Origin: Pseudomonadota bacterium
Lineage (GTDB): Bacteria; UBA10199; 2-02-FULL-44-16; JBDRGF01
NCBI GenBank assembly: GCA_043818055.1
Contig: JBDRGF010000014.1
Location: 1-57,796 of the forward strand
DNA length: 57,796 nucleotides
Direction of reading: 5' to 3'
Below are positions 870-20,405 of this stretch, in pieces. The position numbers were made by a program, and so were the translations under genes. The notes under the pieces were generated by a model that saw nothing but the letters and a program-made list of their open reading frames with translations, was not told the DNA's origin and searched no databases. Within the stretch, counting starts at the first letter, position 1, and each line of letters opens with the position of its first letter.

Positions 870-871
870 AC

Positions 872-900
872 GCAACATTTGTTTGTTTTCCACCGATAAT
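872..900 (+). promoter_or_regulatory. Sigma-28 (FliA)-like promoter of cassette 1 small gene
   Basis: GCAAC-N15-ACCGATAAT; -10 resembles GCCGATAA; same motif and spacing before all three paralogs. Confidence 0.65.
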
Positions 901-918
901 GATAATGAAGGGAGGGGA

Positions 919-1941
919 ATGTCTATTATGCCATGTGAGGCTTCAAAAAAAATGATCTGTCAGCCTCGAGCTAGAAATTATGCTGCGATTTGTGTCAAGG
1001 ACTCTCTCTCTAAGAATAGGTACATAATAGGTCAAAATTCTTCAGCATGTAATGCTGGTGTACATTCGATTTTCTCTCGTCTTCAATCGATAATAAAAAA
1101 ACAAAGAGGTAAAATAGGAAATCTTTTACTTGCTCACAGCTTTATAAAATGTGGGAATTTCTCAAAATGTGAGCATTATTTTGTGTTAAATCGAACTCAA
1201 CAGCAGCGTGTCTTAAGAAAAAGTGCCAGTCCAAAAAAGCTCTCCTTATTGGGAAAGATCATAAAGTTGCTTTCGAGAAAAAAAACTAGAAAGAAAATCT
1301 CTTCATTTAAAACTATTTATAAGAAGCTATACTGGCTGACATTTAATGGTGCGATGAATCGCGTTCGTCTATATAAAGGTAGCTGGAAGAAGTTTATTGA
1401 ATATAGTTCAGCGTGTCGTTTGTCAATCAGACATAAGGTTAGCACAACATATAAGAACGGAAGAAGGTTTGTTAAGAGAAGAATTATAATGCGGTTGGGA
1501 TGTCTTTCTTTTAATGATTTTATTACGGATCCTAGTTATAGAAAGTTGCAGACAGAGCCATACTGTAAGCCGCTTTTCAATTCCAAGAATGTATCATTTG
1601 AGAAATATTGTGAGGCAAATAAGATTAGCCCATTTCGTTTTTCCGGGTGTGATAAGAGAATTCTTAAAATTTTTAGAAAGTTTGAGAAGAGGGCTAAATT
1701 AGGGCAAATTCTTTATCATAAAACTCAAAATTCTGTTATTTTGCGCAGCTGTTCTCATCAATTTGAAGTCGTGGTAGGTGGATCCAAGTACTTCGTGACC
1801 TTTAATGATAGAATGAATGAAATTACGATATCCAACAATAGGGGGAGCTCTCAACCCTCTATCAAATACATATCTTCATCAATTCCTGGCGCTTCTTCTG
1901 CGAGTTTTTCTAGACTGATTCGTCATCCATCTATGAGGTAA
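919..1941 (+). CDS. Basic (Lys/Arg-rich) hypothetical protein, cassette gene A copy 1
   Basis: ORF 781..1941; start moved to ATG 919 (or 928) behind the promoter and purine-rich RBS; shares PYCxP..YC..GC and SCSxxF..FNDxMN motifs with 7871 and 13792. Confidence 0.8.
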   Translation: MSIMPCEASKKMICQPRARNYAAICVKDSLSKNRYIIGQNSSACNAGVHSIFSRLQSIIKKQRGKIGNLLLAHSFIKCGNFSKCEHYFVLNRTQQQRVLRKSASPKKLSLLGKIIKLLSRKKTRKKISSFKTIYKKLYWLTFNGAMNRVRLYKGSWKKFIEYSSACRLSIRHKVSTTYKNGRRFVKRRIIMRLGCLSFNDFITDPSYRKLQTEPYCKPLFNSKNVSFEKYCEANKISPFRFSGCDKRILKIFRKFEKRAKLGQILYHKTQNSVILRSCSHQFEVVVGGSKYFVTFNDRMNEITISNNRGSSQPSIKYISSSIPGASSASFSRLIRHPSMR

Positions 1942-2076
1942 TATCAAGTGTCAAAATAATGTTTCTAACTATGTTTTTTTGACGTTCCATGGCACGAGAC
2001 ATCAACAATAGTTTTTTAAAGATCCCGTAACGCTCATTAACGCCCATTTTAAAATATCAAGCAGACTAAATTGATG

Positions 2077-2092
2077 TGGCATGATATATGCT
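2077..2092 (+). promoter_or_regulatory. Sigma-54 -24/-12 promoter
   Basis: TGGCATGATATATGCT, canonical GG-N10-GC spacing. Confidence 0.8.
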
Positions 2093-2130
2093 GAAATCTA
2101 TAGTCGGTGAAATCCAAATGGGGGTATTCT

Positions 2131-5100
2131 ATGAATATATTAAAAAGTTCAAAAATGAGTTTAATCACGCTTATTCTCACTTTAATTCTTATTCTACCAA
2201 TAAAAGCTATGGCTTTCGATTGGGGCGATTTATGGCCCTTTGCTGAAGAGAGTGGATCAGGCGAGGTAATCGATGCTAGGGAGCAGCTTATAGAGGCAGG
2301 TATCATTCAGGATGAGGAGGGTGGCGAAATCTTGGATTTAATGGGTGAAGATGGATTGAGGTTGTTTGGAAATTATCAGGAGATGGATTTTGGTGAGCCT
2401 GAAGAGCCTAAAAGCTATGATCAGCAGATTGAAGATCTTAAGGCGGATTTTCAATTTCAATTTTTAGACACCCTGTACATAGAATTGTCGCAGGATAATC
2501 CACGAGTGGAGCTGGATGCCGGTGAAGAATTTAGGATTACTGCAGAGGTTGAAAATATAGATTTGGTAGGCGCTTTTGAACCAATCTCTATAGCTATCAG
2601 TGAGTATCATTCAAATGTCGAGGGTATGGAGGTGGTCGGTGGTGGATTTCGTTTTGAAATATTTGCGGATGAGGAGAGCCCTAGTATCAAGATCACAGTT
2701 AGTAGCCCAGAGATTATGGAATATATAATGGGATCGGATGTTTTGGAGGGATACGGTTATTTTTATTATGCACCATCCAAAGCCTTTACTGGAATATTTG
2801 ATAAGTTGGGTTTAATTCAGATTGCTCATGCACAGGAGACAATGGAAGGGGAATTTGGAGAACCGTCAGGTGGAATTCCAGGGGAGATGCCAAGCGAAAC
2901 TGGTCCTATTGGAGGCGGAGTTGTCGAACAACCAACAGTTGAAGGTGAAATTGGACAGGATAATGGATTGCAAATTTGGGGGGATGAGCCGGGTGAGACG
3001 CCTCAGGAATGGGAGCCACCAATAAATAATGGTGGAATACAGATTGTCGACGAAGCCTTTGGCATAGGTATGGGAAAAAATACCCGTTCAAAAGCAAAAC
3101 GGTATTTTATCAATGTTCCGAGCACTCTTTCGCCGGAGGGGATTGTTTGGAAAGTGGATCCAAAGGATTTGATGGGAGGTTTTGAAGGTGGAAAAGTTCC
3201 TCAAGGTAAGCCGGTCGCCTCTGTCAATATGCGTGTGGTAAAGGATAAGCCGACCGCAACACCTCCTAAAAAGGTTCCGACAGAGGGCGAGGTATTCGAT
3301 TTCAATTGTGAATATATCTTTAGTGATGGTTTTCGAAGTAATTCATCAAAGCGTCCGCCTGAACCTTGGGTGCAGAACATGCCTGTTTTACATTCCTTTG
3401 ACAAACATCCTCTCTATCGGGTGTGTGGTGTTCAGTTTGTCGCAAGTGAGATTAGCAAGCAGATAGGGGGAAGTGGTGTTATGTCTTTGCAGAAAAGCTT
3501 TATGGAAACATTTGCCAGTATTATTTCGGAAGACTTTTTATACATGTTTGGTGATGCCGATTCACTACCTGGAGCTATTAAACAATCGGATACCTTCAAT
3601 TTTCAAATCTATCCAGTTGGGGAGTGGAACAAATCCATTTCTGTGGGGTTTAGAACGTCAGGTACGACTTCGAGTTATTCATCACAGATCACTACTTCTG
3701 GTGTAAGAAAGGTAAAGATTGAGTACAATGTGTCAGATCTTGTGGAATATTTTAGAAATTTAAAGACCAAACAGAATGGAGTGACTGGCAAGGATATGAT
3801 GATGGCAGTAATCGCTCCCGAAGTGCTTCGCAGTTTTACTGAGAAGTATATCTTCGATAATGCAAAGGCAGAAAAGGTAAAGGAGTGGGTAACAAAGAAT
3901 CAGCAGAGCAATCAGATGCTTTCAGATTTTGCTAGAGAACAGGCTGCTGACAATTCAAGTTTGGAACTATCTCCACCGGCTCCCTACTTTGAAGGCGTGA
4001 GTAGTGCATTGAGTGGTATTCAGCTTTTTACAACGAGTAAAGCTGTAAAGGCTATAAAACGGGGATCGCAGATATCACTCAAAAATGCTGATATTCCGAT
4101 TGGCGGAGATTCTTTTAGCGATTTTTTTCCCGGAGTAAGTGACTACTACTCCTTTATTCGAAATTCTCTTAAAAGTGGGAATCTCGATTTTTACGATGCT
4201 ATTGTGACAGATCAACTTGGATATACAAAGAATACACCCGATGAGCTCGGAAAATATAAGTTGGCGAAAGCCAGGGATTTTATGCGCTACATCAATAATC
4301 GGTTGTTGTGTAGAACATATACATCGAATGCGGTCAATTTTATGGGGAGTCAGACGGCAAATAGTTCCCTTGATGTTATCCTGATGGACCCACTTTGGAG
4401 CGGTCCTTTTGATGGAGTAGATAAGACAAAGGATGTCGAAGGGCTTATTGTTCAGGAATATGGCGTTGCTGATTCTGCTAATCTCTTCTATGGCGGTTGG
4501 ATGACTTGTGCTCCTATGGGACCTGGGCAACAGGTTCAAGGGACAAGTGGCTCCCTATACATGCTAGATTCTTTCAAGGATCAGTTTAGTGATTTTGCAA
4601 ATCAAAAAAGTTTCTCCTTTAAGAGCAGTATGCGCTTTGAATTTCCGGGCTCCTATGATGCTAATGGTAAACTTCTGATTAAAGATGATGATTCGCCGGT
4701 CAATATCTTTTTAGAGCTTCCGGCAACGGTTCAATATAATATCTTTCAAGTAAAGAAGGAGCAGGTTGAATATTTTAATCCAATTGCGAATGTTATGATG
4801 TTGCCCTATTCCGCATTTCTTAGGGAGGTTGAATTTAAATATGCTGTTTCTGAGGAGGGGAGAAAGGCGAACGATCGTGTGATAAGCTTTTATTTTTACG
4901 CTCCCGATCAAAAATATGTAGATCAATATTTTCCGTATATATTTGTCTCCGTCTACGTAAAATATCTTGATGGGAAATTTATGCTTCGTCAGTACGCTTT
5001 AGATCATCTGCCAACTGTCGAGACTCCCGTTGATATTGTATTGGCAAATAGTAAAGGTGAAATTAATATGAGTAGTAAACAGACACTTATTGCAAAGGAA

Positions 5101-7074
5101 TTAAAGATAGGTGTTGGTGATATCTCTACGGGCCAGACTGGGGATTTCGGAATTCCTCAGAATGAAATGCTGATTAAAACAGCCTCCGCTGGAATTCCTA
5201 TGAGTATTAAGGTTGCAGTTGTCAATGCTAATGAAACCGGCACCTTTCCTAATTATCTTCCTAATATTCCGATCTCGTGTGATCGCTTTAATGATAAGTG
5301 CGATGAGTGGGGCCTTAAGTGTAATTATATGACTAATCGTTGTGAGGGAAATGAAAAAATAAACTTGCCGGTATATGTAAGTGCAAAGATACGCAAAGTT
5401 GATAAATGTCCTACAGGAAAGAAGATGACAAGATCAGGTGAGTGTGGATGCGATAAGGGTGATGCTATCTGGGGCTCGGAATGTCCCGATGGATATATTA
5501 CTGAAGTGGTCGATGGTAAATGTAAGTGTGTAACTAAATGTGGTGCAACTGAAAAATGGGATCCCGAAGCAAAATCGTGTAAATCCTGTGGCAATAATTC
5601 TTACAATAGACATTACGATTCTAAAAATCCAGCTTCTATTATTACCGAATGTCAAAAGTGTCCAAATAATACAGAGCCGGTGTGGGAGCTTGGTGCGGGC
5701 GGAAGAAGCTGTGCTCCTACAGTTGAATATGCTTTGGGATGCAGCGCGGTTTGTGGCTGTAATAACAAGGCATTTAAGATGGTTGGTTTCGATGAAAGTA
5801 GCTTTTGCAGGGCGGATTGTGATCCTGGTTCGATATTTGATTCCACAAAATCTTCACCCGCGAAGCAGTGTAAAGAATGTGATTTTTTTCAAAAATCTAA
5901 TAAGGAGCGGACTAAATGCGAAGCGTGTAATCCAGGTGTTACAGAGGCACAGATTGCATCGAATTATAGTAAATATAAATTCTTTTTCATAGAATCTGAT
6001 CCGGAAAAGAGTGAATGTTTTTATCCAAAGGATAAATGTGATTCCTCAAATCAATACTACGACGTGAACTTAAAAAAATGTATGGCATGTCCACAAAATT
6101 CATCGAGTGATTTTTCAAAGGATCCGACGATTTGTGAATGTTTGAAGAAATATGCTGTAACGCCAATTGAGAATGTGGCTCATGACGAGATCTGCTCATA
6201 TAATTGCAGTTATGCACAAAGGGTCAGCACTGATAAAAAGAGGTGTGAAGATTGTCCGGAGGGAGAGATGCGCAATCCGCTGGATCAAAATAAGTGTAGA
6301 ACGTGTCCTATTGGGGCGCTAGATGATAAGACGCACGGTTGTCAGTGTCCAGCAGGTTCAAAGGTTGTAGACATGAATAAGTGGATGTGTGAGTGCCCAC
6401 TGGGCTCTACCTACTCTGAGAATGGATGTATGTGTTTAAATGGCAAACGTTGGATTTATGAGAAAAACACCTGGGGTATGGTTTGCAGATGTGCAGATGA
6501 TGAACGGATAGTTAATGGTGTATGCAATTGTCCATCTTCCGTCGCTACAGTGAATTCAACAGTTGCCAAGAAGTTTGCTTGTAAGCAGGATGGAACCATC
6601 TGTGATTTATTTTCAAAATCTTCCTGTACCTGTAACCCCGGTTACACCTTTACCGCTGATAAGGCGGCATGTGTAAAATCCAGCTGTCAAAAGGGACAGA
6701 TCATGCTGAATGGCAAGTGCTACTGGGATAGCGCCTATCAGGGATGTAAAAAGATAACATCTACTCAGGATTATAAAACGTCTTCAGTATTAAGTCAGTC
6801 AGCTAATTGTAGTCAGAGCAAGGCTTGGAACGGTGCATGTATGGGAGGGTCATCCGGCCCTGCAGGTCCACATACTCTGTGGTATTGTCCGGGTGAATAT
6901 CCATATGGTGGAAATTACTGTGGTGGTAGCAGTTACTGCTGTTTTAGACATTCTGATAACAATCTTACGACTAATGTAACTGGTGTGACATACTCTCCTG
7001 TCTCTGGTAGCAATTATTGTTGTCCAGCAGGAATGAAAGATACCATAGTCGGTACATTCGTTGTATGTCAGTAA
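2131..7074 (+). CDS. Giant secreted Cys-rich protein, cassette gene B copy 1 (degenerate metallopeptidase motif)
   Basis: ORF 2107..7074; ATG 2131 follows a GGGGG RBS; signal peptide ending IKAMA-FDWGDLW; acidic N-region; CxxC/CxC-rich C-terminal third. Confidence 0.9.
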   Translation: MNILKSSKMSLITLILTLILILPIKAMAFDWGDLWPFAEESGSGEVIDAREQLIEAGIIQDEEGGEILDLMGEDGLRLFGNYQEMDFGEPEEPKSYDQQIEDLKADFQFQFLDTLYIELSQDNPRVELDAGEEFRITAEVENIDLVGAFEPISIAISEYHSNVEGMEVVGGGFRFEIFADEESPSIKITVSSPEIMEYIMGSDVLEGYGYFYYAPSKAFTGIFDKLGLIQIAHAQETMEGEFGEPSGGIPGEMPSETGPIGGGVVEQPTVEGEIGQDNGLQIWGDEPGETPQEWEPPINNGGIQIVDEAFGIGMGKNTRSKAKRYFINVPSTLSPEGIVWKVDPKDLMGGFEGGKVPQGKPVASVNMRVVKDKPTATPPKKVPTEGEVFDFNCEYIFSDGFRSNSSKRPPEPWVQNMPVLHSFDKHPLYRVCGVQFVASEISKQIGGSGVMSLQKSFMETFASIISEDFLYMFGDADSLPGAIKQSDTFNFQIYPVGEWNKSISVGFRTSGTTSSYSSQITTSGVRKVKIEYNVSDLVEYFRNLKTKQNGVTGKDMMMAVIAPEVLRSFTEKYIFDNAKAEKVKEWVTKNQQSNQMLSDFAREQAADNSSLELSPPAPYFEGVSSALSGIQLFTTSKAVKAIKRGSQISLKNADIPIGGDSFSDFFPGVSDYYSFIRNSLKSGNLDFYDAIVTDQLGYTKNTPDELGKYKLAKARDFMRYINNRLLCRTYTSNAVNFMGSQTANSSLDVILMDPLWSGPFDGVDKTKDVEGLIVQEYGVADSANLFYGGWMTCAPMGPGQQVQGTSGSLYMLDSFKDQFSDFANQKSFSFKSSMRFEFPGSYDANGKLLIKDDDSPVNIFLELPATVQYNIFQVKKEQVEYFNPIANVMMLPYSAFLREVEFKYAVSEEGRKANDRVISFYFYAPDQKYVDQYFPYIFVSVYVKYLDGKFMLRQYALDHLPTVETPVDIVLANSKGEINMSSKQTLIAKELKIGVGDISTGQTGDFGIPQNEMLIKTASAGIPMSIKVAVVNANETGTFPNYLPNIPISCDRFNDKCDEWGLKCNYMTNRCEGNEKINLPVYVSAKIRKVDKCPTGKKMTRSGECGCDKGDAIWGSECPDGYITEVVDGKCKCVTKCGATEKWDPEAKSCKSCGNNSYNRHYDSKNPASIITECQKCPNNTEPVWELGAGGRSCAPTVEYALGCSAVCGCNNKAFKMVGFDESSFCRADCDPGSIFDSTKSSPAKQCKECDFFQKSNKERTKCEACNPGVTEAQIASNYSKYKFFFIESDPEKSECFYPKDKCDSSNQYYDVNLKKCMACPQNSSSDFSKDPTICECLKKYAVTPIENVAHDEICSYNCSYAQRVSTDKKRCEDCPEGEMRNPLDQNKCRTCPIGALDDKTHGCQCPAGSKVVDMNKWMCECPLGSTYSENGCMCLNGKRWIYEKNTWGMVCRCADDERIVNGVCNCPSSVATVNSTVAKKFACKQDGTICDLFSKSSCTCNPGYTFTADKAACVKSSCQKGQIMLNGKCYWDSAYQGCKKITSTQDYKTSSVLSQSANCSQSKAWNGACMGGSSGPAGPHTLWYCPGEYPYGGNYCGGSSYCCFRHSDNNLTTNVTGVTYSPVSGSNYCCPAGMKDTIVGTFVVCQ

Positions 7075-7090
7075 GCTTGTATCATAAATT

Positions 7091-7120
7091 CCCAACTCCG
7101 ACTTGCGCGGTCGGAATTGG
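7091..7120. terminator. Hairpin after gene B copy 1
   Basis: ccaactccgac-ttgcgcg-gtcggaattgg; homologous hairpin at 13642-13672. Confidence 0.6.
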
Positions 7121-7162
7121 ATCCTAAAAGGTCTGTAAAAACAGATTGTTAGTATTTTTTTA

Positions 7163-7793
7163 ATCGGGATGGGAGCAAGGAGCATCAGTGATGACACCCC
7201 TTGCAGCCCCCGTTGCTCGTAGCGTGCGGTCAGTGCTACAAGTAGTCGTTGTCCCCCGTACTTATATTGGGGCACCCATGGGCTCATGGATGACTTCCTC
7301 CTCGGAGCTGTCGTCTGCAATTTCTTCGTTTTACGCCCTGGTCTATCCCTTTAGGGTCTCTCAGGTTGCAATGCGCTTAACTCAAGGGTTAATTTCTCTC
7401 CCCTTGTTATCGTGCCATCTGCACGCACCATGAATTTAGAGACAGTTGCTGATATTTGGCTTCGCCATAGTTGCTTTAGTCGCCTTCCCGTCTCTTGGCC
7501 GACCAGTTTTCAGAAGTGGATTTATCTATCCTTTCTGGAGCCTGTCCTGAGCGTAGTCGAAGGAGCCCGATAACTCGTCTCATGCCTTACGGCGTGTTCC
7601 CTCACGAGATCACCCTGCCCTCCCAGAATTATCCGCAGATAGCCCTGGGGCCACGTGCCGTCAAGCATCGCTTTTGACTTCAATCAACCCTCAAGCCCGG
7701 GCTTCGGATGGTGAATTTCGGAATTCTCCAACCACCGGGGATTCTTGCCCTTTTCCCTCCTTTCTCCTATGTTAAAAGAAATGTGCCTCGCAC
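7163..7793 (-). ncRNA. Putative ORF-less group II intron (~630 nt) with degenerate domain V
   Basis: Minus strand: 5' GTGCG; CAACCTGAGAGACCC (domain I end-like); AGGAAGTC..GAGCCCATGGGTGCC (domain III-like); CTTGTAGC..CCGC-AC-GCTACGAG (domain V-like stem with AC bulge); domain VI-like stem ending CTCCCATCCCGAT. Confidence 0.65.
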
Positions 7794-7837
7794 ACGCAAC
7801 ATTTATTTGTTTTCCACCGATAATGATAATGAAGGGA
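7433..7837. repeat. 405-bp direct repeat, copy 2
   Basis: Matches 509-913. Confidence 0.95.
7796..7824 (+). promoter_or_regulatory. Sigma-28-like promoter of cassette 2 small gene
   Basis: GCAAC-N15-ACCGATAAT. Confidence 0.65.
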
Positions 7838-7870
7838 TAAATAGAGTTATATCTATTATATAGTGAGAAT

Positions 7871-8788
7871 ATGAGTCGATTACAAAATAAATCAGCTAGT
7901 TCAATTAATCGTTCAATCGATGTTTCGAGTATCTTTGCTCGCTTGAAAAGCGTCTCAAAGAATGGAGCAAAAAGTGGAAAAATTCTCTCCTATCGTTACG
8001 TTTCTAACTCTAAACAACATATCTTTACCATCCAGCAGAAAAGAGGATTTCTATCTAAGTTAAAATTTTGGGGATCACGCTCGCCTAAGATTGGCGATCG
8101 TATCGAGATCGATCATTCACTAAGAAGTTTACACTATTATATTTCGGGGAAGAAGATGATTTATAGATATGGTGATATTTGCCAAGCTGCCGGCTTAAGT
8201 GGAGTTCATCGAATTCGTAGAAATGAACGTGGATTTTATTTTAAGAGAAATCTAATTAGGACTAGAACTGATAAAGACGGCACTGTGAGATTGTGTGCCA
8301 CGTCGAACGGGATTGTTTCCTTGTTAAATTCTCGTTTGCCTTCGAAAATCAAACCGTACTGTCGACCCATTACACGTCGATACGGATCATATCAGAATTA
8401 CTGCAGTAAAAATAGGATCGGTTTCATAACAAAAAATGGATGTCATCCGAGTGTACTTGCTTTTTATACACTTTTAAAGGATGCCTCTAAGAAAAGCTCC
8501 TCAGTTAAGATCAGCAAACAACAAAAGCATCTATACAATTGGAGCTGTTCATATATTTTTAAAGTGAAGGTGAGTAGAGCTGGTTGTGGTGGAGTTAAAA
8601 CATATTTTGTCGAATTGAATGATGAGATGAACAGGGCAGTTATTTATACAAAGAATACTAAAGGTAAGAAAATGCTCATTAGCTATGGTAAAGGAGATCA
8701 TTCAAATAGCGTAAGGCAGGTATCAACCGACTATCTCAAGAGAACCTCTCTATATCAACATCTCCAAAAAGTTGTATCCTCTCAATAA
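7871..8788 (+). CDS. Basic hypothetical protein, cassette gene A copy 2
   Basis: 305 aa ORF; PYCRPI..YC..NGC and SCSYIF..YFVELNDEMN motifs shared with paralogs. Confidence 0.85.
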   Translation: MSRLQNKSASSINRSIDVSSIFARLKSVSKNGAKSGKILSYRYVSNSKQHIFTIQQKRGFLSKLKFWGSRSPKIGDRIEIDHSLRSLHYYISGKKMIYRYGDICQAAGLSGVHRIRRNERGFYFKRNLIRTRTDKDGTVRLCATSNGIVSLLNSRLPSKIKPYCRPITRRYGSYQNYCSKNRIGFITKNGCHPSVLAFYTLLKDASKKSSSVKISKQQKHLYNWSCSYIFKVKVSRAGCGGVKTYFVELNDEMNRAVIYTKNTKGKKMLISYGKGDHSNSVRQVSTDYLKRTSLYQHLQKVVSSQ

Positions 8789-8913
8789 TGTAGGCATTTT
8801 TTTGACACCTTTAGCAAATCTATCCCCTTGAAATTGTTGAGTTTCAATTTTTAACGTCAGCATCTTGGCGAAATTTCTAGTTATATTATCTTAATTTTTG
8901 AAGTCTCATTTTC

Positions 8914-8926
8914 TAACCTATTGATT
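8914..8926 (-). promoter_or_regulatory. IHF binding site
   Basis: Reverse complement AATCAATAGGTTA = WATCAANNNNTTR, just upstream of a sigma-54 promoter. Confidence 0.55.
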
Positions 8927-8944
8927 TTTATACATCTCATAGAT

Positions 8945-8960
8945 TGGCATAGTTTATGCC
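8945..8960 (+). promoter_or_regulatory. Sigma-54 -24/-12 promoter
   Basis: TGGCATAGTTTATGCC. Confidence 0.8.
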
Positions 8961-8993
8961 CTAAGATCAGTTGGTAACCGATAGGGGGTGGCG

Positions 8994-11900: not shown

Positions 11901-13628
11901 TTTGGCGATTCGCCTGCAGAGGGATATAACATCGGTGTGATTGATCGAATCTATATTGCCATAGTAAATGGCAATACGACAGGCCCCGTGGTCAACGCCC
12001 CTGAAGGCAAGTTTCAGATCGCCTGTACAAAAAAGGGGAATGAATGTGATAAATTTGGATTAGTCTGTGTTTCAGGTCTGAATGTCTGTAAAGGTCTTCC
12101 AAGTGTGACGCCGGTCTTAGTCAAAGCCTTTGCAGATTATGATAAGTGTCCCAAGGGAATGGAAATCAACAAAGAGGGAAAATGCAGCTGTCCAGATCCA
12201 AACAGTAAATGGGGAGAGACCTGTAATATGGGATTTGAACCAAAACTCTTTACTGAAAAGGATGGCTCACAGGGTTGTGCGTGTCGTCCCGATTGTGATC
12301 CGGGGCAGCGTTGGGATGATGAGAGTAAAGAGTGTGTTAATTGCGCAAGCGGTGAGTACAATGCTTATTTTGATCTGAAAAATCCAGGGAGTGTTACCGA
12401 ATGTCGTTCATGTGATTCTCAGATGAAGAATAGCAAAGTTGAATGGACCAATACCTCAAGCACACAGTCGGGAAATCCGATTATCACACCAGATTCAAAA
12501 GCCAAGTGTGAGTGCCCAGATAAATTTAATGAAGAAAGTACAACAACTTCAACAAAATCGTATTGCAAAGCTCCATGTCGAGAGGGCGATTACTGGTTTA
12601 ACGATCACTGTGAGCCGTGTCGCCATTTTGAAACCTCAAGCGACGATCGTTTGAAATGTGTCAATTGCAATACAACAGGGCAGGCACAGGATTGGCTCTA
12701 TCATCTAAAACCGACTAGTAAATATTTCATCATCTCACAGGATGATGCAATTCGAGGTTGTGGTTTTATCAAGGACCGATGCGGTTTTGCACATATGTAT
12801 AACTTGAATACGAGAAAGTGTGATAGGTGTCCAACCTACTCCTCTTCCGCATGGAGTCAAAACGATCCCAGCACAGGTCAACCGGGGCCTGTAAATAGTT
12901 GTGTCTGCAATTCAGGCGATCAGATTTTATCAGGACAGCGCTGTCCGACCGACTGTATCGACTTACAGAGAAATATCGGATGGGATCCGAAGAGCAAGAC
13001 ATGTATCAATTGTGGGACAAAGGCGATTTTGAATTCGAACTCCGATAAATGCATCGCATGTCCAAAATATGAGATCGCAGGGAACTATCCAGGGCAGGTT
13101 GGATATTCCTGTGTGTGTGATTCAGTTTGTAAGCAGCAAAAGCAGGCGGCTACCGCCGCCGCTCAGCAGCCAAAGTGCCAAGCGAATCAATGGTACAACG
13201 CTTCAACGAAGACATGTTCGACAAGGCGGTGTACTACAGATAACGATTACAGCAACTCAGCATGTGCTGGCGGCGAGGAGAAGAAGTATCATCTAGTCGT
13301 TGGTGGAAAGGCCTTCTGCTGTAAGTGCGGTGAGGTGGCAACCTACTTCGGTTGTACGAGTGGAGTGTTGCCGCCAGTGCCTCCTCCAGCGGGGTATGCA
13401 ACGAGTTGTCCAGCTGGAACTATTCTATCTGGAACTGTTGATCTGAATCCGGATGCTGAAGATTCAACGACAAAATTTCAGATGATGGTCTGTTGTCAAT
13501 CAACGCATCCTTATAAGATTAAATACGAGCCATATGTCTGCGGTTATGCCTGCTGCAGTTCGCCGGTAAGTCAGTGGGATGCTGCAAAATGTAACTCTGC
13601 TAACTGTATCACGACTCAGAAAAAGTGA
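8994..13628 (+). CDS. Giant secreted Cys-rich protein, cassette gene B copy 2
   Basis: ORF 8988..13628; ATG 8994 after GGGGG; signal peptide ending SVKS-FEWGDL; collinear with copies 1 and 3. Confidence 0.9.
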   Translation: MYIILKKHILIFLLLTLFLIPLSVKSFEWGDLLNPFSSEGGEILEEVIPDSERFVTEEGEPVEEEEGFSYADVYFTEPENYKKNYAEVVERGYEEQVRELMQENGFAMITSAEIVIAGDEKRFLLELGEANQLIIDVEYEVGAAIDDPLYLYISSFTSNDTEEYQMMGPGYEVDVQGNIEGKHLTFTFKNPEIEEYMNQIMEMMDPEELEQILAGQKKFDSNFFHELFSKLHVVKNAYAQEYPAELGEGPIETPFVEGGIYEPGEIGTPQPYGVSEGGASPENPVPWGDTGAPPGKKEYPNESPYQIVGEEYGFGIGKHDGRIPARYFTIFPSVYNFKERGIEYNPGNPRDIKDFLEGKFAGQELSYKFKMRVIRDKAVAKAPTKPKQASTAQAGCVYIRYDQTMPSYVRNVPTNLMGLEPFQKYPIYKLCGMNKLYSAAKDPILSENFTRMLNGVITRIWKYTTGFGLMADSLKIGYYPKGLNYHEVDIELKNASEMGKDLGKMRWSYGGKSAVIGGQTRLLELGGSSKSQLQLKIDLNLDELLKYSQIPKTSQGFSGEDLMCGVVAEQVMRSFSHYNIYYRGNSNKHWDWYTKGAVTDDALAAYMIEEMCDLASPWANPRGQFPKGWIGFTGDLHFKTASSLPYRNLNEPYVLTPGGYIFSEYLRSTDKFRGFFLEEIMKGNAIDIEEYVSKLSLDPSKPLTPEILAGLQSFELARYVENFLFCKLYGQKVMDFDLKDFDGSDRHYDTANLKLQEVGSNQWDYYAWMNCGQIAASVPNKILQSFYADKVNNVVGIFDMGKLYAASAKKVADGLVGTSIALREGYSPINFIAELEPAVPSGLYTFRSGNVDVDAPLADLRMLPMSIVYGYIDFAQVQKKDKENKNKVTFQFFAKDENFIKQYLSNVYVMSLVVYADGSINYGTTTLAQLPFSKNRIETVVNADRNGKILVDKTTGEKRIKTMLLKELSFGDSPAEGYNIGVIDRIYIAIVNGNTTGPVVNAPEGKFQIACTKKGNECDKFGLVCVSGLNVCKGLPSVTPVLVKAFADYDKCPKGMEINKEGKCSCPDPNSKWGETCNMGFEPKLFTEKDGSQGCACRPDCDPGQRWDDESKECVNCASGEYNAYFDLKNPGSVTECRSCDSQMKNSKVEWTNTSSTQSGNPIITPDSKAKCECPDKFNEESTTTSTKSYCKAPCREGDYWFNDHCEPCRHFETSSDDRLKCVNCNTTGQAQDWLYHLKPTSKYFIISQDDAIRGCGFIKDRCGFAHMYNLNTRKCDRCPTYSSSAWSQNDPSTGQPGPVNSCVCNSGDQILSGQRCPTDCIDLQRNIGWDPKSKTCINCGTKAILNSNSDKCIACPKYEIAGNYPGQVGYSCVCDSVCKQQKQAATAAAQQPKCQANQWYNASTKTCSTRRCTTDNDYSNSACAGGEEKKYHLVVGGKAFCCKCGEVATYFGCTSGVLPPVPPPAGYATSCPAGTILSGTVDLNPDAEDSTTKFQMMVCCQSTHPYKIKYEPYVCGYACCSSPVSQWDAAKCNSANCITTQKK

Positions 13629-13641
13629 TTTTGGTACCCTT

Positions 13642-13672
13642 CCCAATTCCGACCTACGAGGTCGGAATTGGG
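13642..13672. terminator. Hairpin after gene B copy 2
   Basis: cccaattccgacct-acg-aggtcggaattggg, perfect 14-bp stem. Confidence 0.65.
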
Positions 13673-13723
13673 GATTTATTCACTATAAAAATACCTTTAA
13701 AATCAACAATGTAGATCCAAAAA

Positions 13724-13752
13724 GCAACTTTTGCATCCAATTTGCCGATAAT
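13724..13752 (+). promoter_or_regulatory. Sigma-28-like promoter of cassette 3 small gene
   Basis: GCAAC-N15-GCCGATAAT; -10 is the exact FliA consensus. Confidence 0.7.
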
Positions 13753-13791
13753 ATATATAGCTAGAGGTGTAGCTATTTTAGGAGGTTAAGC

Positions 13792-14787
13792 TTGCAGTGT
13801 TCACCATCAAAAGGGCGCGCTTATAAGCGGTATTGTGGAAATCTTAAGAGTATTCCGCGTCGCACTGCTAAGCCTAAAAAGGGCTGTCATACCGGTGTAT
13901 ACTATTATTATCTCCAGTTAAAAAATGCCTCTAAAGGTAAAAATACCTCAGTTTCATATCGCTACAACAATGCTTGGTTTGGATCTTCAGAGCATATATT
14001 CATCATTAAAAAACCAAAAAATGCTTCTAAAAATAGCAGTGGTATATGGATGCGGATTAAGAAGAAGCTCAGTGGTTTTGGAAGTGGCAATTTTGAAATT
14101 AGAATCAACGAAGAGATGAATAAAATGCAAATTTATGGTGGAAAGAAGGGGTTAGAGTATGGCGCTCGCTGCGACGTGCCCAAGCTGGTCAAACAGGCTG
14201 GAAGAGAGATAATCGAACGCAAAAATGGATGTCTCGGTTTTACTGAGGTTAAGAAAAAATCGTTCTATCCATTGGCTAAGGTAACTCCGCTCTGTCGCAA
14301 CTCAATTTTAAAGCGATATAAGAGTATAGAGAGATATTGTAACCCGAAAAAGTTTGGCGTATCTCAAAAAATGTCTTCATATGATTTTCGTCATGGTGCC
14401 TGCAAATACTTAGTTCAAAGGGTTTATGGCGAGCTTGTGCGATATAAAAAAGTGCATCCAACAAAAATTACTTACAGGCCGATAGCCCTGACTCTTAAGG
14501 ATAACGAGTGTTCATATCAATTTGTTCTGAAAGGGAGAGGTAATACTCTTTTAAGGGTGTCGATGGATACCTATTTGAGATCGATGTCGATTGAATCTGT
14601 CAATGGATCAAAACAAAAGATACAGTATGGTGCTGACCCGCGTATCATTGTGAGCAAGAAGATCCTTGTTGATGGGAAGGAAAAAAGAATTAAGGTAAGA
14701 GGTCTTGATAAAACCTGTCTTAATCGATCTCAATTTGAAGCCCATCCACTCTATAAAAAGCTGATACAAATTCTTAAACTGAAGTAG
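13792..14787 (+). CDS. Basic hypothetical protein, cassette gene A copy 3
   Basis: 331 aa, TTG start after AGGAGG; motifs EHIFII..INEEMNKMQIY, PLCR..YC..GAC, CSYQF shared with paralogs. Confidence 0.85.
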   Translation: MQCSPSKGRAYKRYCGNLKSIPRRTAKPKKGCHTGVYYYYLQLKNASKGKNTSVSYRYNNAWFGSSEHIFIIKKPKNASKNSSGIWMRIKKKLSGFGSGNFEIRINEEMNKMQIYGGKKGLEYGARCDVPKLVKQAGREIIERKNGCLGFTEVKKKSFYPLAKVTPLCRNSILKRYKSIERYCNPKKFGVSQKMSSYDFRHGACKYLVQRVYGELVRYKKVHPTKITYRPIALTLKDNECSYQFVLKGRGNTLLRVSMDTYLRSMSIESVNGSKQKIQYGADPRIIVSKKILVDGKEKRIKVRGLDKTCLNRSQFEAHPLYKKLIQILKLK

Positions 14788-14916
14788 TTTAATATTAAGG
14801 TGCAACACATTATCGACATTTTGACGATTGTCATCCCTTTGACATTTCCCCCTCCCCTGTCATTTATAACTATCTTAAATTATTGATCTTTTTTTTACTT
14901 ATCCACAGGTTCTTAT

Positions 14917-14932
14917 AGGCATTAATTTTGCA
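14917..14932 (+). promoter_or_regulatory. Sigma-54 -24/-12 promoter
   Basis: AGGCATTAATTTTGCA; upstream TGTCA-N6-TGACA palindrome (14829-14844) and IHF-like site (14876-14888). Confidence 0.7.
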
Positions 14933-14973
14933 TACTATATCCCCTGGTGGGGTTTTAAACGCTGGGGGATTTT

Positions 14974-17900
14974 ATGCAGAAAAAATACTCTTTTGTTATT
15001 GTTTCACTAATTTTTATCACAACAATCTTTTCATCTCTCAAGCTTCAGGCTTGGGAATGGTCCGATCTCTGGAGGGCCTTTTCGCCTCCTGAGGAGAAGG
15101 TGGAAGAGCTGGATGAGGCAACAATGCTTAAAGTATCTGAAGGTGTTGAGGTGATGAGCGAGGAGGAGTTTAAAGTCGAGTATCCCGGTTTTGAATTCGA
15201 CGATGAAAAGAGGCTGTCCGAAGAACCTGCAGAGATCCTTATGATTGAGGAGAGGGCCCAGCTTCCTGTCATTCAGGAGAGGGTTGAATTGGAGCTTGAG
15301 CCGACTGAAGAGGTTGAAGCTCTCTCCCCGGCTCAGATTCAGCTGAAGAATTTAAGTGAACAGGCACCTCTTCTAGAGAAGGGTGAACTTATTCCAAACC
15401 TCTCCTTAGATGAGCTCACAGAAATTGCAGTGCAGGATATTGAGAATGACATCTCAAAACTAAAAAAAGAGAGAAGCTATGAGCTGATCGCACAGGATAA
15501 GCTGGTCATCTCTGCCGAACAGAATGTCGTTCGTTACGGGAGCGGTGATTCACAAATTATTTTTGAGCGAGAGATAGTTAATGGTTTCGGGGATAACGAG
15601 TTGATCGTCGAGATCAAAGAGTATGTAATGATTGATCCGTATGAAAATGCGGATATTGAAAATTACTATACCCCTCTCGGTAATGGGTTTGAATTTAAAA
15701 TCCATGGCGTTGTTCACAACCCGATTCATGTGACCTTGACAAATCCTGAGCTAACTCAAGTTTTAACGCAGGTTGCCGAGGTGATCGGTGAAGAGGTCGG
15801 TGCACCTGTAGAGGGTAATGTTGAAACGAACGAGAGAGATAAGGTTGAAGAGAGAATTGAGCTTCAAGAGGAACGTATTGAAAAGCCCGAGTCGGGAATG
15901 ATTTTAGAAAAGTTTGAAGGTCTGCTGCAAAAATTCGGCCTCCTAAAGACTGCATATGCTCAGGAGTTTGGCAGAACACCTGATGATGTCGATGCTCCAG
16001 GTGAGCGTGGTGTTGAGATGGGATCTGTTCCTGAGGTGAGGGAGTTTGGAATTGGTGTGGGAGGGCAGGATGGAAAAACAAAGACTCCCATTCCCTGGGG
16101 CGAGGGAGGCAAACCAAAGCCGAAGCGCAATCCCAATGAATTGAAAGGTTTTTATAAGGCGATGGAGGAGTCCTTTCCGCTTATAGAGAATAATATAGGA
16201 GGAGTTCAGTATAAGAAGTTTCCAGTTCCGGGGCAGGATCTCGATTTCAACAGGATGGGAATCACATTTACGATAGAGCCCGACACCGATCATATAAATG
16301 AACCCTCGTACGACGCAGTATCGCTTCGCGGTTTTGTGGAAGGTGTCGGGTTTGGCGCCCGTGGAGTTGGAATGAAACCGGAATTTATGGGGCGCCTATT
16401 CAAGACAGCAAAAGAATGGGGACATTCAGCCATTCAAAAAACGAAAAATATATTTACTGCTACAGATTATAACTGCATCGAGCTCTGGTACGATGGCAAT
16501 TGGAACTATGTCGGTAAGAGAAAGAGATATGCCCTTCATAATGTTTTTTATAAGGACAATCCAATTTATGAAATTTGTGGTGTTAGTGAAGGCGAGTTAG
16601 CTAGCCAGGCTTTTGAAGCAAAGGTTATAAAAAACGGTATATATGATGGCGGATTTTATGAAGCATTTTATTCTGCTCTACTACGTGTTTTTTCTTACTA
16701 TACCGGTTTACAGTTACCTAAGAATAGCTTTCCGGCATCAAATAATGGTGCACTCAATTTTCCCGTTCCGTCACTTCCAATTTCGATAAAGCTATCCCCT
16801 CACATTTTAATAAAAGATGGAAAGAAAATACCTAGGGAAACTGGCGGTTATTTAGCAACTGTGAGTTCAAGTAAGTATTGGATCGATTTTGATTCAACGT
16901 GGCTCTATGATGCTTTCAAGAACTCTTCAAGTTTACCACAAACATTGGCAACAAAGCCGATTAAAGGTGATAGGCAGCTAATATCTACACCTGCTCATGA
17001 ACTGATGCATTTTTTCGATTTTCAGAGTCTTCTCAGAAAGGGCGGTTTTTCGGCTTGGCAGAGGCTTACATCAACAACAAAAGAGGCGACAGCGACTTTT
17101 TCAGAAGAGGAGACTAGTGATGGGGGGTTGGCCTCGTGGCCATTTGTACAGGGGAAGTACTTGCAAGGGATTATCAGTCTTAACGGCATAGCTCATTTTA
17201 AAAACAAAAACCAATATACTTATCACATCCGCAGCCCTGTTATTGAAAGAGGCTATTTAAATTCTCCATACTTGAGATCGATAAAATATCGTGATGATTA
17301 CCTTAAAGATGTTCAAGGTGGTAAGGTGGAGGATATATTTGAATATATTGTTAACCAACGCAGTAAAAAGAATCCAATAGGATCGTTGGACGATATGAGG
17401 GGAATGGAGATCAATCGATTTTTTCAAAACCTTCTCGAATGCAAGATCTATAAACAAGGCGGTTATGATATTCTTGGTATGCCAGTTGTGGATACGCGAG
17501 ATAAATATTTCGATGCCTTTGGAGATAAGTTTGAGGAATTTGAGACAAATACAAGTCAATACGATTTCTACGATTGGTTGAAATGTAGAAATTATGGGAT
17601 TCCAGGTCAAGAGGTTGTAAGCGCCTTTAGGGAGAGTAAAAATAATCTCTCAGATATCACAAGTCTGAATTTGGGGGCTCAGTCGGTTTATTACGATAAT
17701 ACACAATGGTTATGGAAACCGTTCTGTTATGATGCTGAACAGTTAAAAAAGAAGATTATGTACAATGTGTTGAGGTTGGATCCAGGCGATAAGATTTATA
17801 AGGTCAAGATTGGCTCTTTTAATTCGGCACTCATTCCGACGTTGGCCTGTTTGAAGCCCTTTGATAATTCTCTCAAATATGAGCTCGAAGGGGCTGAGGT

Positions 17901-19989
17901 CGATGGAAAAATCAAAAATGAATTAGAGCCAGTCTTGATGTACAACATGATTCCATATTCTGCGATGACCGGTGTACTCGATTTTATCGATATGCGAAAG
18001 GTCGATTCAACAAAAGAGGCGTCGCTTCGTTTTGATTTCTATTTGCAAAGACCGAGCGGTAAAGAGCAGCTCTACTTGGATTATTATGCAAAGAATATGT
18101 TCATCTCGGTTATCGTCGAATATGAACAGGGGCCACCGCTTAAAATGAATATTCCATTATATGCTCTACCATTTCCCAAAAATAGAATGACGGCAAAGCT
18201 TGCAGAGTTGGATAATCAGAAAAAAATTGTGCCGGGAAAGACGACCGATTGGTTTGTAAAACAGCTCAAGCTCGGTATGAAGAAAAACACATCAGGTTCG
18301 AGTGAAGGTGTGATTAAGCGAGTTACATTTATGGTTGTAAACGGAAATGGTTGTAAAGGATTGGGTATTGACCTTACTAAATGGTGTAAGGGCACGGTTG
18401 GAAATTCAATCAATGGTCAAGGGCAGCAGGCGACGAACATATATTTTGGAATGAGTGCGACCATTGTGAATGAAAAGCCGTGTGAAGATGGTATGGCCAG
18501 AATCCCGGAGACTGGGGAATGTGGCTGTAAGGTGACGAAGAATAACACGGTTGTTGGAAAGGCGTGCGATGCAGGGTTTAAATCGAAGATGATTCCGGAT
18601 CCCGATGATAGTGCAGGAAAAAAGATGTGTGAATGTGTTCCGAAGTGTTCTGGCTTGGAACGATGGGACGATAAGTTAAAAGTTTGCGAGCCGTGTAAGG
18701 AGGGTGAATATAACGCCTGGTATGATGCTGAAGTAGAATCTGAGAGAACAGGCATGCTGAGTCTGTGTTGGGATTGTAAGAGTTTGAAACAGTCCACACT
18801 GAAATGGTCAGATCTTAAAACTGGAAAGAAATGCAGTCCGGACGATTATTATTGTGGGGCGAGTTGCGGTTGTCCTGATAAGTTTGAAAAATCAGATGAT
18901 GAAAAAACTTGCCAGGCACCATGTGATTTGGGTGATCGTTGGGATGGCAGCAAAGAAAAATGCGTAGCGTGTGAGTGGTGGCAGACATCATCGGATGACC
19001 GAACGAAATGTGTCGATTGCAATCCGGGTAATCCTTCAAGTGACTCAATGTTGAGGTATCCAAAGTATAAATATTTTTTTGTTGGTCCAGGCGATAGAGG
19101 CTGTTTTTTAATGAAGGATAAATGCAATCAGTATCAAGCTTACAGTACAAAGGATCGCAAGTGTTATGCCTGTCCACAAAGTGGCCCAGTTGAGAAGGGA
19201 CATACTGCAGGGGGAACGTGGGCTGTAGGTAGAGGTGGAAAGGGAACGGACATGGCATATATACATTTGTGCGCGTGTCGTACGGGTGAAGAGGTGAATG
19301 TGCTTTCAAATTGTCCAACCCAGTGTCCGAAAAGCATGGCTTGGATAAATCAAAAGTGCAAGTCTTGTAGTGCATCTGAACGGATGGCACGCGATCGAAA
19401 ATCCTGCCTCCAATGTGATCCTCTGGGAGGCATCCAGAATCCGAAGGATCCATATTCATGTATATGTAAATCTACACATGAACCGATAAACATGGGAACA
19501 TATATTGAGTGTAGAGAAAAATGCCAACCAGGCCTAGTAAGACATGGCGGCGTTTGCTTAAAACCGTGTCCGAAAGGGATGATCTATAAGATGGGTAAAT
19601 GTGTGAAGGAGCTGAGTTGCTCGTCGGGTCAGGTCGCTTATAATGGAACATGTTATTGGGAGGCTGGATATGGAACATGTTCCAAGGTATTTTTGTCAGA
19701 TGGGCGTCTCTTAGCGCAAAGCACAGGCTGCACAGGGAACGAAATTTATAAATGCGAATATAACAAGTGGAACAAACACTACTGTCATTCTGGTTATGAT
19801 TACATCGAGTCCAGTCAATGCAGTAAGTACGATCACAATCATGGAGGAAATCTTTGTTGCCTTAAATATCCCAATGTTTCTGTGGATTATAAATCGTACT
19901 ACGGTGGGCCTACAAGCTCGCTCAACAAATATTGCTGTCCACCCGGCATGAGCCCGTCAAAAATTGGCGACAAGATGATTTGCAGGTGA
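14974..19989 (+). CDS. Giant secreted Cys-rich protein, cassette gene B copy 3, with HExxH zinc metallopeptidase motif
   Basis: 1671 aa; signal peptide ending LQA-WEWSDLW; AHELMHFF followed by KEATATFSEE; Cys-rich tail. Confidence 0.9.
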   Translation: MQKKYSFVIVSLIFITTIFSSLKLQAWEWSDLWRAFSPPEEKVEELDEATMLKVSEGVEVMSEEEFKVEYPGFEFDDEKRLSEEPAEILMIEERAQLPVIQERVELELEPTEEVEALSPAQIQLKNLSEQAPLLEKGELIPNLSLDELTEIAVQDIENDISKLKKERSYELIAQDKLVISAEQNVVRYGSGDSQIIFEREIVNGFGDNELIVEIKEYVMIDPYENADIENYYTPLGNGFEFKIHGVVHNPIHVTLTNPELTQVLTQVAEVIGEEVGAPVEGNVETNERDKVEERIELQEERIEKPESGMILEKFEGLLQKFGLLKTAYAQEFGRTPDDVDAPGERGVEMGSVPEVREFGIGVGGQDGKTKTPIPWGEGGKPKPKRNPNELKGFYKAMEESFPLIENNIGGVQYKKFPVPGQDLDFNRMGITFTIEPDTDHINEPSYDAVSLRGFVEGVGFGARGVGMKPEFMGRLFKTAKEWGHSAIQKTKNIFTATDYNCIELWYDGNWNYVGKRKRYALHNVFYKDNPIYEICGVSEGELASQAFEAKVIKNGIYDGGFYEAFYSALLRVFSYYTGLQLPKNSFPASNNGALNFPVPSLPISIKLSPHILIKDGKKIPRETGGYLATVSSSKYWIDFDSTWLYDAFKNSSSLPQTLATKPIKGDRQLISTPAHELMHFFDFQSLLRKGGFSAWQRLTSTTKEATATFSEEETSDGGLASWPFVQGKYLQGIISLNGIAHFKNKNQYTYHIRSPVIERGYLNSPYLRSIKYRDDYLKDVQGGKVEDIFEYIVNQRSKKNPIGSLDDMRGMEINRFFQNLLECKIYKQGGYDILGMPVVDTRDKYFDAFGDKFEEFETNTSQYDFYDWLKCRNYGIPGQEVVSAFRESKNNLSDITSLNLGAQSVYYDNTQWLWKPFCYDAEQLKKKIMYNVLRLDPGDKIYKVKIGSFNSALIPTLACLKPFDNSLKYELEGAEVDGKIKNELEPVLMYNMIPYSAMTGVLDFIDMRKVDSTKEASLRFDFYLQRPSGKEQLYLDYYAKNMFISVIVEYEQGPPLKMNIPLYALPFPKNRMTAKLAELDNQKKIVPGKTTDWFVKQLKLGMKKNTSGSSEGVIKRVTFMVVNGNGCKGLGIDLTKWCKGTVGNSINGQGQQATNIYFGMSATIVNEKPCEDGMARIPETGECGCKVTKNNTVVGKACDAGFKSKMIPDPDDSAGKKMCECVPKCSGLERWDDKLKVCEPCKEGEYNAWYDAEVESERTGMLSLCWDCKSLKQSTLKWSDLKTGKKCSPDDYYCGASCGCPDKFEKSDDEKTCQAPCDLGDRWDGSKEKCVACEWWQTSSDDRTKCVDCNPGNPSSDSMLRYPKYKYFFVGPGDRGCFLMKDKCNQYQAYSTKDRKCYACPQSGPVEKGHTAGGTWAVGRGGKGTDMAYIHLCACRTGEEVNVLSNCPTQCPKSMAWINQKCKSCSASERMARDRKSCLQCDPLGGIQNPKDPYSCICKSTHEPINMGTYIECREKCQPGLVRHGGVCLKPCPKGMIYKMGKCVKELSCSSGQVAYNGTCYWEAGYGTCSKVFLSDGRLLAQSTGCTGNEIYKCEYNKWNKHYCHSGYDYIESSQCSKYDHNHGGNLCCLKYPNVSVDYKSYYGGPTSSLNKYCCPPGMSPSKIGDKMICR

Positions 19990-20139
19990 CGAAAGATAAA
20001 TGGATTTATGAGCAAGCGAACATTATTTCATCTATCAAGCGAATGAGAGTAGCGTCGATGCCTGCTGCCCACAAAACACGAAACCCGTAGGTGATATTTG
20101 TAAATGATTTTAACTTAGTTCTTACGACTTATAACTTAT

Positions 20140-20338
20140 GGGCACCTCTAAAAACCTCTAATTTTCTCCTATGGTGTCATTGCGAGAAGCCCATAGGGCG
20201 ACGTGGCAATCCTGAACCCCCGTGCCTTTGACCGACGAAGCGGGCAAAGAATCCAGGGTTTATAAGCATTACCCCGAGATCGCCACGCCTCCATCCAGGA
20301 GGCTCGCGATGACAAACTGGAGGTTTTTAGAGGTGCCC
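20140..20338. mobile_element. MITE (199 bp) with 19-bp terminal inverted repeats and TTAT target duplication
   Basis: gggcacctctaaaaacctc ... gaggtttttagaggtgccc; ttat on both flanks; internal gtcattgcgag...ctcgcgatgac palindromic repeat. Confidence 0.85.
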
Positions 20339-20405
20339 TTATATTTTCTTTGTGATGCTGTCATATATAATGATTTTGAAAATGATATACAGCGCTTAAG
20401 ATGGG

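Follow-up and report, generated by a model that had tools for sequence, protein, structure and literature searches.

Why a genome should keep several diverged copies of one two-gene unit, and read its two genes from promoters of different classes, is the question raised by the DNA analyzed here, namely the 57,796 nt of contig JBDRGF010000014.1 (forward strand; this whole stretch is called the window) from assembly GCA_043818055.1 (Pseudomonadota bacterium; GTDB lineage Bacteria; UBA10199; 2-02-FULL-44-16; JBDRGF01). Here, gene A, encoding a basic protein, and gene B, encoding a very large cysteine-rich protein, alternate in the order A1 B1 A2 B2 A3 B3, as six open reading frames (ORFs) that all lie on the plus strand. 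Our preferred answer, to which we assign a probability of about 45%, is that B may serve early as a surface protease or binder expressed under sigma-54, and A may be a late substrate of a type III export machine, both being used on contact with another cell. The analysis also exposed two features on which the sequence-only reading of this locus had not remarked, a class-wide sigma-28-type regulon and a group II intron in the promoters of A1 and A2. The regulon, and the apparent homing of the intron to its promoters, are better supported and more surprising than the A-B pair.

We refer to the present genome as G000, to its contigs by C-numbers, and to other genomes by other G-numbers. The G000 assembly comprises 2.93 Mb and is 93.6% complete, and it was the sole member of its family among the genomes searched, such that close relatives are missing from the comparisons below.

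The A-B pairs and their copies

The three tandem units contain the following features.

872-899, plus strand: sigma-28-type promoter of A1 (GCAAC, 15 nt, ACCGATAA), with an intron junction directly 5′ of GCAAC
919-1941, plus strand: gene A1, 340 aa, basic, without a signal peptide
1977-1983, plus strand: TTTTGAC motif, recurring at 8800 and 14819; each copy precedes a sigma-54 box by about 100-140 bp
2077-2091, plus strand: sigma-54 −24/−12 box of B1 (motif)
2131-7074, plus strand: gene B1, 1647 aa, zinc-binding motif lost (APEVLR)
7090-7120, no strand assigned: hairpin 3′ of B1, a likely terminator (fold z −3.4)
7796-7823, plus strand: sigma-28-type promoter of A2, near-identical to that of A1
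7871-8788, plus strand: gene A2, 305 aa
8945-8959, plus strand: sigma-54 box of B2 (motif)
8994-13628, plus strand: gene B2, 1544 aa, zinc-binding motif lost (AEQVMR)
13640-13674, plus strand: terminator-like hairpin 3′ of B2, 16 pairs (fold z −6.0)
13724-13751, plus strand: sigma-28-type promoter of A3, without an intron
13792-14787, plus strand: gene A3, 331 aa, two tandem alpha/beta repeats with conserved Cys
14917-14931, plus strand: sigma-54 box of B3 (motif)
14974-19989, plus strand: gene B3, 1671 aa, with signal peptide, acidic domain, AxAQE at residue 327, peptidase-like region, beta-rich domain, and Cys-rich tail
16996-17085, plus strand: HELMH of B3 (residues 675-679) and its third-ligand Glu704 in EATATFSEE (motif alignment)

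The ORF finder's start for A1, at 781, falls within the intron, and the start was taken as 919. The array had been described as a tandem triplication, of which the gene order stands but the copy number does not: a search of the whole assembly located a fourth complete A-B pair on contig C130, the 3′ part of a B gene at the start of C123, and a frameshifted, 5′-truncated B on C33. The description of a basic A family and a Cys-rich B family, each homologous within itself, held throughout (A, pI 10.1-10.5, E 1e-7 to 4e-12 among copies; B, 60-68 Cys, E 7e-61 to 5e-115), as did the linkage of the two. Specifically, six-frame profile searches recovered exactly four A genes in the assembly; a B gene follows directly in 4/4 cases, and no A gene stands alone. 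The identities of A and B ran in parallel, with A3-A4 at 41.1% and B3-B4 at 42.5%, A1-A2 at 29.1% and B1-B2 at 28.2%, and the remaining A-A and B-B pairs at 20-27%. Judged from the alignments, this congruence is the mark of co-duplication and long joint retention; binding is a separate question. The idea that the copies form a diversifying system was not borne out: divergence between them is saturated and no switching device was seen.

Co-duplication alone would yield congruent trees, and A and B could be unrelated passengers copied together as a block, the genome being one in which orphan genes are amplified in tandem. Other arrays of large paralogs are common in G000 (C122 16289-35946, C2 41128-51743, C29 5108-18463, and C33 98753-112128), so that triplication by itself is ordinary there; furthermore, A and B fall into different promoter classes, and on C130 A4 is the third gene behind its sigma-28 promoter, with unrelated genes ahead of it. 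However, both partners have stayed intact in 4/4 copies at 20-43% identity, including the copy on another contig, and we regard the passenger explanation as quite unlikely. One member of the C122 array, of 1527 aa, has a signal peptide and a sigma-54 box. The extra B pieces on C123 and C33 each sit directly upstream of a gene or gene fragment that we take to be TatD-like.

Searches for homologs of A and B were word-seeded, and distant relatives may escape them. On these terms, B3 had no match in 40 relatives (0/40), profiles of the B core and of A had none in the 92 other genomes of the phylum (0/92), and scans of metagenome and genome contigs gave no A or B outside G000. Comparisons of the A alignment, B3 residues 320-1450, and B3 residues 495-900 to 5.8 billion proteins (the last among shorter proteins) returned only G000's own proteins. 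As far as such sequence searches go, A and B are orphan families known from a single species, and their direct reach is therefore small. The public runs that contained about one third or more of the window's sampled words were groundwater and biofilm metagenomes from three studies, and the best-matching run may come from the sample of origin. Contigs from an RNA run span B1-B3, with the A2 bin empty; these contigs cannot rank expression, and DNA was possibly present. A literature search, which left subscription papers mostly outside its coverage and excluded supplements, found nothing on introns at sigma-28 promoters, on a GCAAC/CCGATAA regulon, or on the A and B proteins.

Two promoter classes and a type III export cluster

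Expression of A and B under different sigma factors, as earlier proposed, was supported by sigma-28-type boxes before A and by a sigma-54 box 49-67 nt before the start in all four B genes, with TTTTGAC as a candidate activator site. Among sigma-54 boxes that were intergenic and had a gene close behind, 22/41 preceded a hydrophobic N-terminus, against a background of ~25%. Matches to sigma-70 promoters were at chance level (45 vs 45.9), and an Rfam scan of window positions 1-30000 gave no match. The hairpins after B1 and B2 are related to each other, as had been noted. Between A and B no terminator-like site is present, and transcription begun late at A may therefore continue into B. The promoter motifs had been offered as a conserved trait of the unit; the boxes are present in all three units, but the sigma-28 motif is spread genome-wide, and the likeness of the DNA upstream of A1 and A2 (92% identical over ~400 bp) is not independent conservation, since A1 and A2 are preceded by copies of one group II intron and by promoters that are near-identical.

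The promoter type of A, GCAAC-N14/15-CCGATAA, was found at 79 sites in G000, vs 0-4 when any one of seven other pairs of spacer lengths was allowed, and in 41/41 genomes of the class, at 6-68 copies each (controls, 0-3). Hydrophobic N-termini were encoded by 8/74 genes behind the strict sites, vs 502/2037 in the background. The other N-termini were enriched in S/T/N/P/Q (0.335 vs 0.252) and depleted in D/E (0.059 vs 0.111), with p 6e-10 each by a crude test. A Pfam scan of 60 regulon proteins (59 of the 74, and one operon gene) left 45/60 without a family, while the 15 with matches included no ankyrin, leucine-rich repeat, F-box, or U-box, that is, no typical eukaryote-like effector domain. 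From composition and motif counts, the promoter would define a class-wide regulon whose genes are mostly orphans with effector-like N-termini. Such a motif, marking 6-68 genes per genome throughout an uncultured class that has a type III export core, would be a simple route to list candidate secreted proteins and to test a predator or parasite lifestyle.

Region-2 matches identified four sigma-70-type genes in G000, one of them FliA/WhiG-like (best TIGR02479, below cut-off). This sole FliA-like gene is located inside a non-flagellar type III cluster on C90, alongside homologs of SctJ/L/N/O/Q/R/S/T, and a sigma-54 box of its own lies 57 nt ahead of it. The one FHIPEP gene of G000 was identified as SctV rather than FlhA, scoring over the cut-off for the former and under that for the latter, and flagellin was not found in the genome. 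Among 93 genomes of the phylum, SctV was matched in 91 (79 over cut-off) and a FliA-like sigma factor also in 91. The host- or prey-interaction setting suggested earlier is supported. G000 has three secretins, one GspD-like, one PilQ-like, and one beside a Tad CpaB gene. A match to PF03934 proved to be a ComEA-like gene and gave no evidence for a type II system. Needle proteins had no match anywhere in our search, in which the controls likewise gave none.

Sigma-54 stands above sigma-28 in the hierarchy of polar flagella. The same order is described for Chlamydia trachomatis in the accessible part of one account, where sigma-54 is tied to envelope and type III genes in the absence of flagella and the sigma-28 regulon comprises hctB and tsp only (PMC10597470). 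In contrast to that two-gene regulon, G000 has 79 strict sites, a GCAAC −35 box, and a sigma gene within the type III cluster. By analogy with HctB, which is basic, A could act late in development as a nucleic-acid-binding protein of the cytoplasm, and the regulon could be developmental rather than an effector set. The high pI of A, the chlamydial precedent below sigma-54, the missing SctC secretin in G000, and the dearth of typical eukaryote-like domains in the 60 scanned proteins would all fit. However, A is modeled as a folded two-repeat protein, its restriction to this genome and its four diverged copies are not what a conserved nucleoid protein would show, and the regulon is large, mostly orphan, and effector-like at its N-termini, so that we consider this explanation very unlikely.

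A parallel to the export machine may be the needle-less T3SS* of Myxococcus xanthus, which, in the portion of the report available, acts together with Tad/Kil pili on bacterial prey (PMC10849154). G000 likewise has a non-flagellar export core, no SctC found, and CpaB beside a secretin; unlike T3SS* as described there, its machine is phylum-wide (91/93), has a FliA-like sigma encoded in its own cluster, and comes with a large regulon of mostly orphan genes. Because of this resemblance to a secretin-less T3SS* and Tad pair, the target of the G000 machine is maybe a bacterium rather than a eukaryote.

What the A and B proteins may do

From its N-terminus, each B runs through a signal peptide, an acidic domain, and an amphipathic stretch that ends in AxAQE; a low-complexity linker then leads to a central region, followed by a beta-rich domain and the Cys-rich tail. 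The domain order reported before was recovered, in that the start (F/W)(D/E)W(G/S)DL, the acidic domain, and AxAQE align across B1-B3. AxAQE with its context is present in all four B proteins (the search pattern also matched three unrelated places) and may be a second cleavage site. As for the gluzincin-like region that had been recognized, the motif is intact in B3 but lost in B1 and B2. HExxH is present in B3 and B4 (HELMH) and in the C33 fragment, and 25 residues after HELMH there is a Glu within an ExxAxFxEE motif (E704 in EATATF of B3; EGIATF in B4), whereas the position aligned with HExxH reads APEVLR in B1 and AEQVMR in B2. HExxH with a downstream Glu is the gluzincin arrangement, and B3 and B4 are predicted to be active proteases, B1 and B2 to be non-catalytic.

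The nearest comparison is with InhA (M6)-like and DUF6055 gluzincins, which share with B3 and B4 the HExxH and the Glu some 25 residues on in ExxAxF, and with B the signal peptide. ESM features of the B core lay nearest to the InhA-like and DUF6055 clusters (0.79-0.82, the bar being 0.9), which we treat as a lead only; no Pfam hidden Markov model of either family matched B at E up to 5. Unlike these families, B has an acidic N-terminal domain and a 500-aa Cys-rich tail, and has lost the motif in 2/4 intact copies. Nearly all of the 60-68 Cys in each B fall within the last ~550 aa, at ~10 Cys per 100 residues over ~500 aa, in CxxC and CxC patterns. By this density and patterning the tail presumably resembles furin-like, Giardia variant-specific surface protein (VSP), and ephrin-receptor-like Cys-rich ectodomains. 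The furin-like and VSP resemblance put forward earlier was not matched at family level: neither family had a Pfam match in B, the only hit (Ephrin_rec_like, E 0.0094) was under its cut-off, and no C-terminal membrane anchor, transmembrane helix, or VSP tail was found in B.

The A proteins lack a signal peptide and consist of two repeats with conserved cysteines, predicted as units of helix and antiparallel sheet (pLDDT 62). This model had no Foldseek match at E 0.001 or better and no usable match in the ESM Atlas; its best VIA score (Z 6.1) was within the range of common arrangements, and a likeness to SifA (VIA Z 5.6) was rejected. The N-termini of A1-A3 have 0-4% D/E. Under the same crude composition test, those of A2 and A3 fit an effector type (no signal peptide, D/E-poor, S/T/N/P/Q-rich), and that of A1 fits for D/E only.

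A has a pI above 10, and the acidic N-terminal domains of B contain 47-72 D/E vs 10-27 K/R. Together with the 4/4 adjacency, the congruent divergence, and the lack of a terminator-like site between the genes, this is what would be expected if each A were devoted to binding its own B, as inhibitor, chaperone, or clamp, and sat on the acidic domain, with a cut at AxAQE maybe releasing that domain. The signal peptide on B and its absence from A, however, would confine their meeting to the time before B export or to the outside of the cell, the two genes have separate promoters of different classes, and A persists next to B1 and B2 although these two have no catalytic motif, making a pure inhibitor unlikely. 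Overall, we think it unlikely that A is such a partner.

We return to the reading in which the two proteins act in succession. A cascade of sigma-54 and then sigma-28 would bring B to the surface first, as a signal-peptide-exported, disulfide-rich protein made under sigma-54, with a gluzincin-type protease domain, acting as protease or as binder on a long Cys-rich stalk. A would be made later, under the FliA-like sigma encoded in the cluster of the export machine, and would be exported by this non-flagellar type III machine on contact with a prey or host cell.

Several observations weigh against this succession. The fold of B rests on motifs, the model of its core having a pLDDT of 32, and sequence and profile searches with B in Pfam, NCBIfam, and the PDB gave no supporting match. 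The SctC secretin was not found in G000 (best TIGR02516 129.5 vs a cut-off of 238, in a genome that is 93.6% complete), and a type III machine without SctC may not be injecting. The promoter heading the type III cluster has a 16-nt spacer, placing it outside the strict set, and the sigma-54 pattern shows just a modest excess across the genome (99 sites vs 27 and 40 when the spacing is shifted). In A1, S/T/N/P/Q content (0.24) equals background, N-terminal composition being a weak predictor, and the conserved cysteines of A would be unusual in a protein exported unfolded from the cytoplasm. Finally, the A and B data all come from a single species, in whose genome tandem arrays of large paralogs are common.

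Group II introns at the promoters, and other features of the window

Apart from the roles of A and B, a lineage of group II introns appears to have inserted antisense just upstream of GCAAC boxes, those of A1 and A2 included. The copies in the window are as follows.

244-498, minus strand: C-terminal transposase remnant, DDE_Tnp_1_4 (Pfam PF13701, E 3.9e-16, over cut-off), presumably IS1380-type, truncating intron copy 1
509-871, minus strand: group II intron copy 1, of which just the 5′ part (beginning GTGTGCG) remains, with 92% identity to copy 2
7163-7795, minus strand: group II intron copy 2, with both ends (GTGTGCG ... CCCAUCCCGAU), ORF deleted and domain V damaged
7470-7474, minus strand: candidate exon-binding site 1 (EBS1) of copy 2 (aligned copies)
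7518-7531, minus strand: candidate EBS2 hairpin of copy 2 (aligned copies)

The insertion sequence end seen at the start of the window also occurs on C18:1-150, 12 nt inside the intron 5′ end at another promoter.

The hallmarks of group II introns are present, namely 5′ GUGYG, 3′ AY, domain V with a GAAA loop, and domain VI, the intact 3′ end (z −5.7) being that of metagenome contig L023. This contig carries an intact intron with a 422-aa reverse transcriptase (RT)/maturase (TIGR04416, 368.6 bits vs a cut-off of 300) that has RVT_1 and maturase domains only and no endonuclease family. Four contig ends of G000 match the last 138-141 nt of the L023 intron at 100% identity, and contig C4 of G000 carries a broken relative. 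The nearest named RT relative was at 54% (L025), and the other relatives listed were at 31-42%.

The 5′ end motif had 13 matches in G000. One, on C35, was dropped as no intron sequence follows it; the other 12 are intron ends, and 12/12 abut a promoter GCAAC in antisense orientation, in a genome with 5183 GCAAC 5-mers vs 79 strict promoters. These sites carry 11 distinct spacers, as A1 and A2 share a near-identical one. We counted the A1 and A2 insertions as one event on account of their near-identical promoters, and by sequence they probably stem from a single insertion that was passed from one unit to another. Both promoter boxes, −35 and −10, survive insertion intact, so that a large late regulon would be a safe landing site. 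An empty allele of an occupied site was not found. Public runs contained two further junctions, both at this promoter type and neither in the assembly. A pattern search for junctions elsewhere gave 5 sites in 4 other genomes; three of the sites were then dropped. The candidates rejected as intron sites were L131 and L132 (no intron similarity), L133 (only ~20 nt of resemblance), and G018 (ambiguous junction). G081 has a complete ORF-less copy (67% identical) at the same junction, G077 has a 5′ remnant at the same junction, and a DNA search added G038, which has that junction at an ACAAC variant. With the window copies and the L023, L134, L136, and L148 loci taken together, the lineage spans four genomes belonging to three families, inserted antisense at the −35 edge of promoters of the sigma-28 type.

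Two elements were kept in 4/4 aligned intron copies (three folded, with almost no covariation), namely a GCAAC segment and a hairpin whose loop reads AGAUAA, and we infer that they could pair with the −35 and −10 boxes; target recognition by the RT protein, or guidance by a sigma factor, may account for the sites on a par with RNA pairing. An enlarged scheme would join a phylum-wide contact programme from sigma-54 to sigma-28, a secretin-less type III machine, and A-B as a cognate pair of effector and surface protease using two routes, to an intron whose EBS1 (GCAAC) pairs with −35 and whose GAUAA loop pairs with −10 across a looped-out gap of 17-18 nt. We hold this combination to be doubtful. 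Its bipartite −35/−10 recognition would be a mode not described for these introns.

Specialized group II introns include the IIC class after terminators and a IIB1 clade at start and stop codons, according to the accessible sections of a survey (PMC12584367). Like those, the present lineage takes as its target a recurring genomic signal rather than one gene, and has ORF-less derivatives; unlike those, it targets the antisense strand at the −35 edge of a sigma-28 promoter. In IIB introns, IBS2a (IBS, intron-binding site) is placed at −14 in what is available of that work (PMC8643678), whereas the second conserved target element here lies at −23 to −28. Membership in group IIC was rejected, given that the 5′ exon was the antisense promoter, not a terminator hairpin, at 12/12 sites. 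A large extra 5′ domain was likewise dropped from consideration, as the G081 copy has a 5′ region of normal length. In the literature that our searches covered, we found no description of a sigma-28 promoter as a group II intron target. If true, fixed-base landing at a bipartite promoter of variable spacing would be a third targeting strategy beside terminators and start or stop codons (the strategies covered in the part of PMC12584367 at hand), and a promoter-homing intron could matter for retargetable introns.

C30:1-2000 carries another group II intron, which is unrelated to this lineage and has an intact RT and ends of IIC-like type. Five of the 79 promoters (C126:156, C154:155, C30:19293, C33:5617, and C56:10721) share GCCGGTTA(A/T)T(T/A)(A/G) just 5′ of GCAAC, which is possibly the end of another repeat targeting the same site.

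Beyond the A-B array, a palindromic repeat at window positions 20130-20350 has related copies on at least 10 other contigs, and genes for an NADH-linked [FeFe]-hydrogenase follow right after the array (21835-25148). A large gas vesicle cluster (35834-48630) encodes five GvpL/F paralogs, a GvpN-like ATPase, CDC48, and a double ArsA ATPase, with an Hsp70 gene nearby (33368-35101). Elsewhere in the genome, many proteins of 1100-1200 aa have N-terminal sequence that looks, by eye, like a Ser/Thr kinase (C2, C3, C19, C42, C64, C99, C104, and C108).

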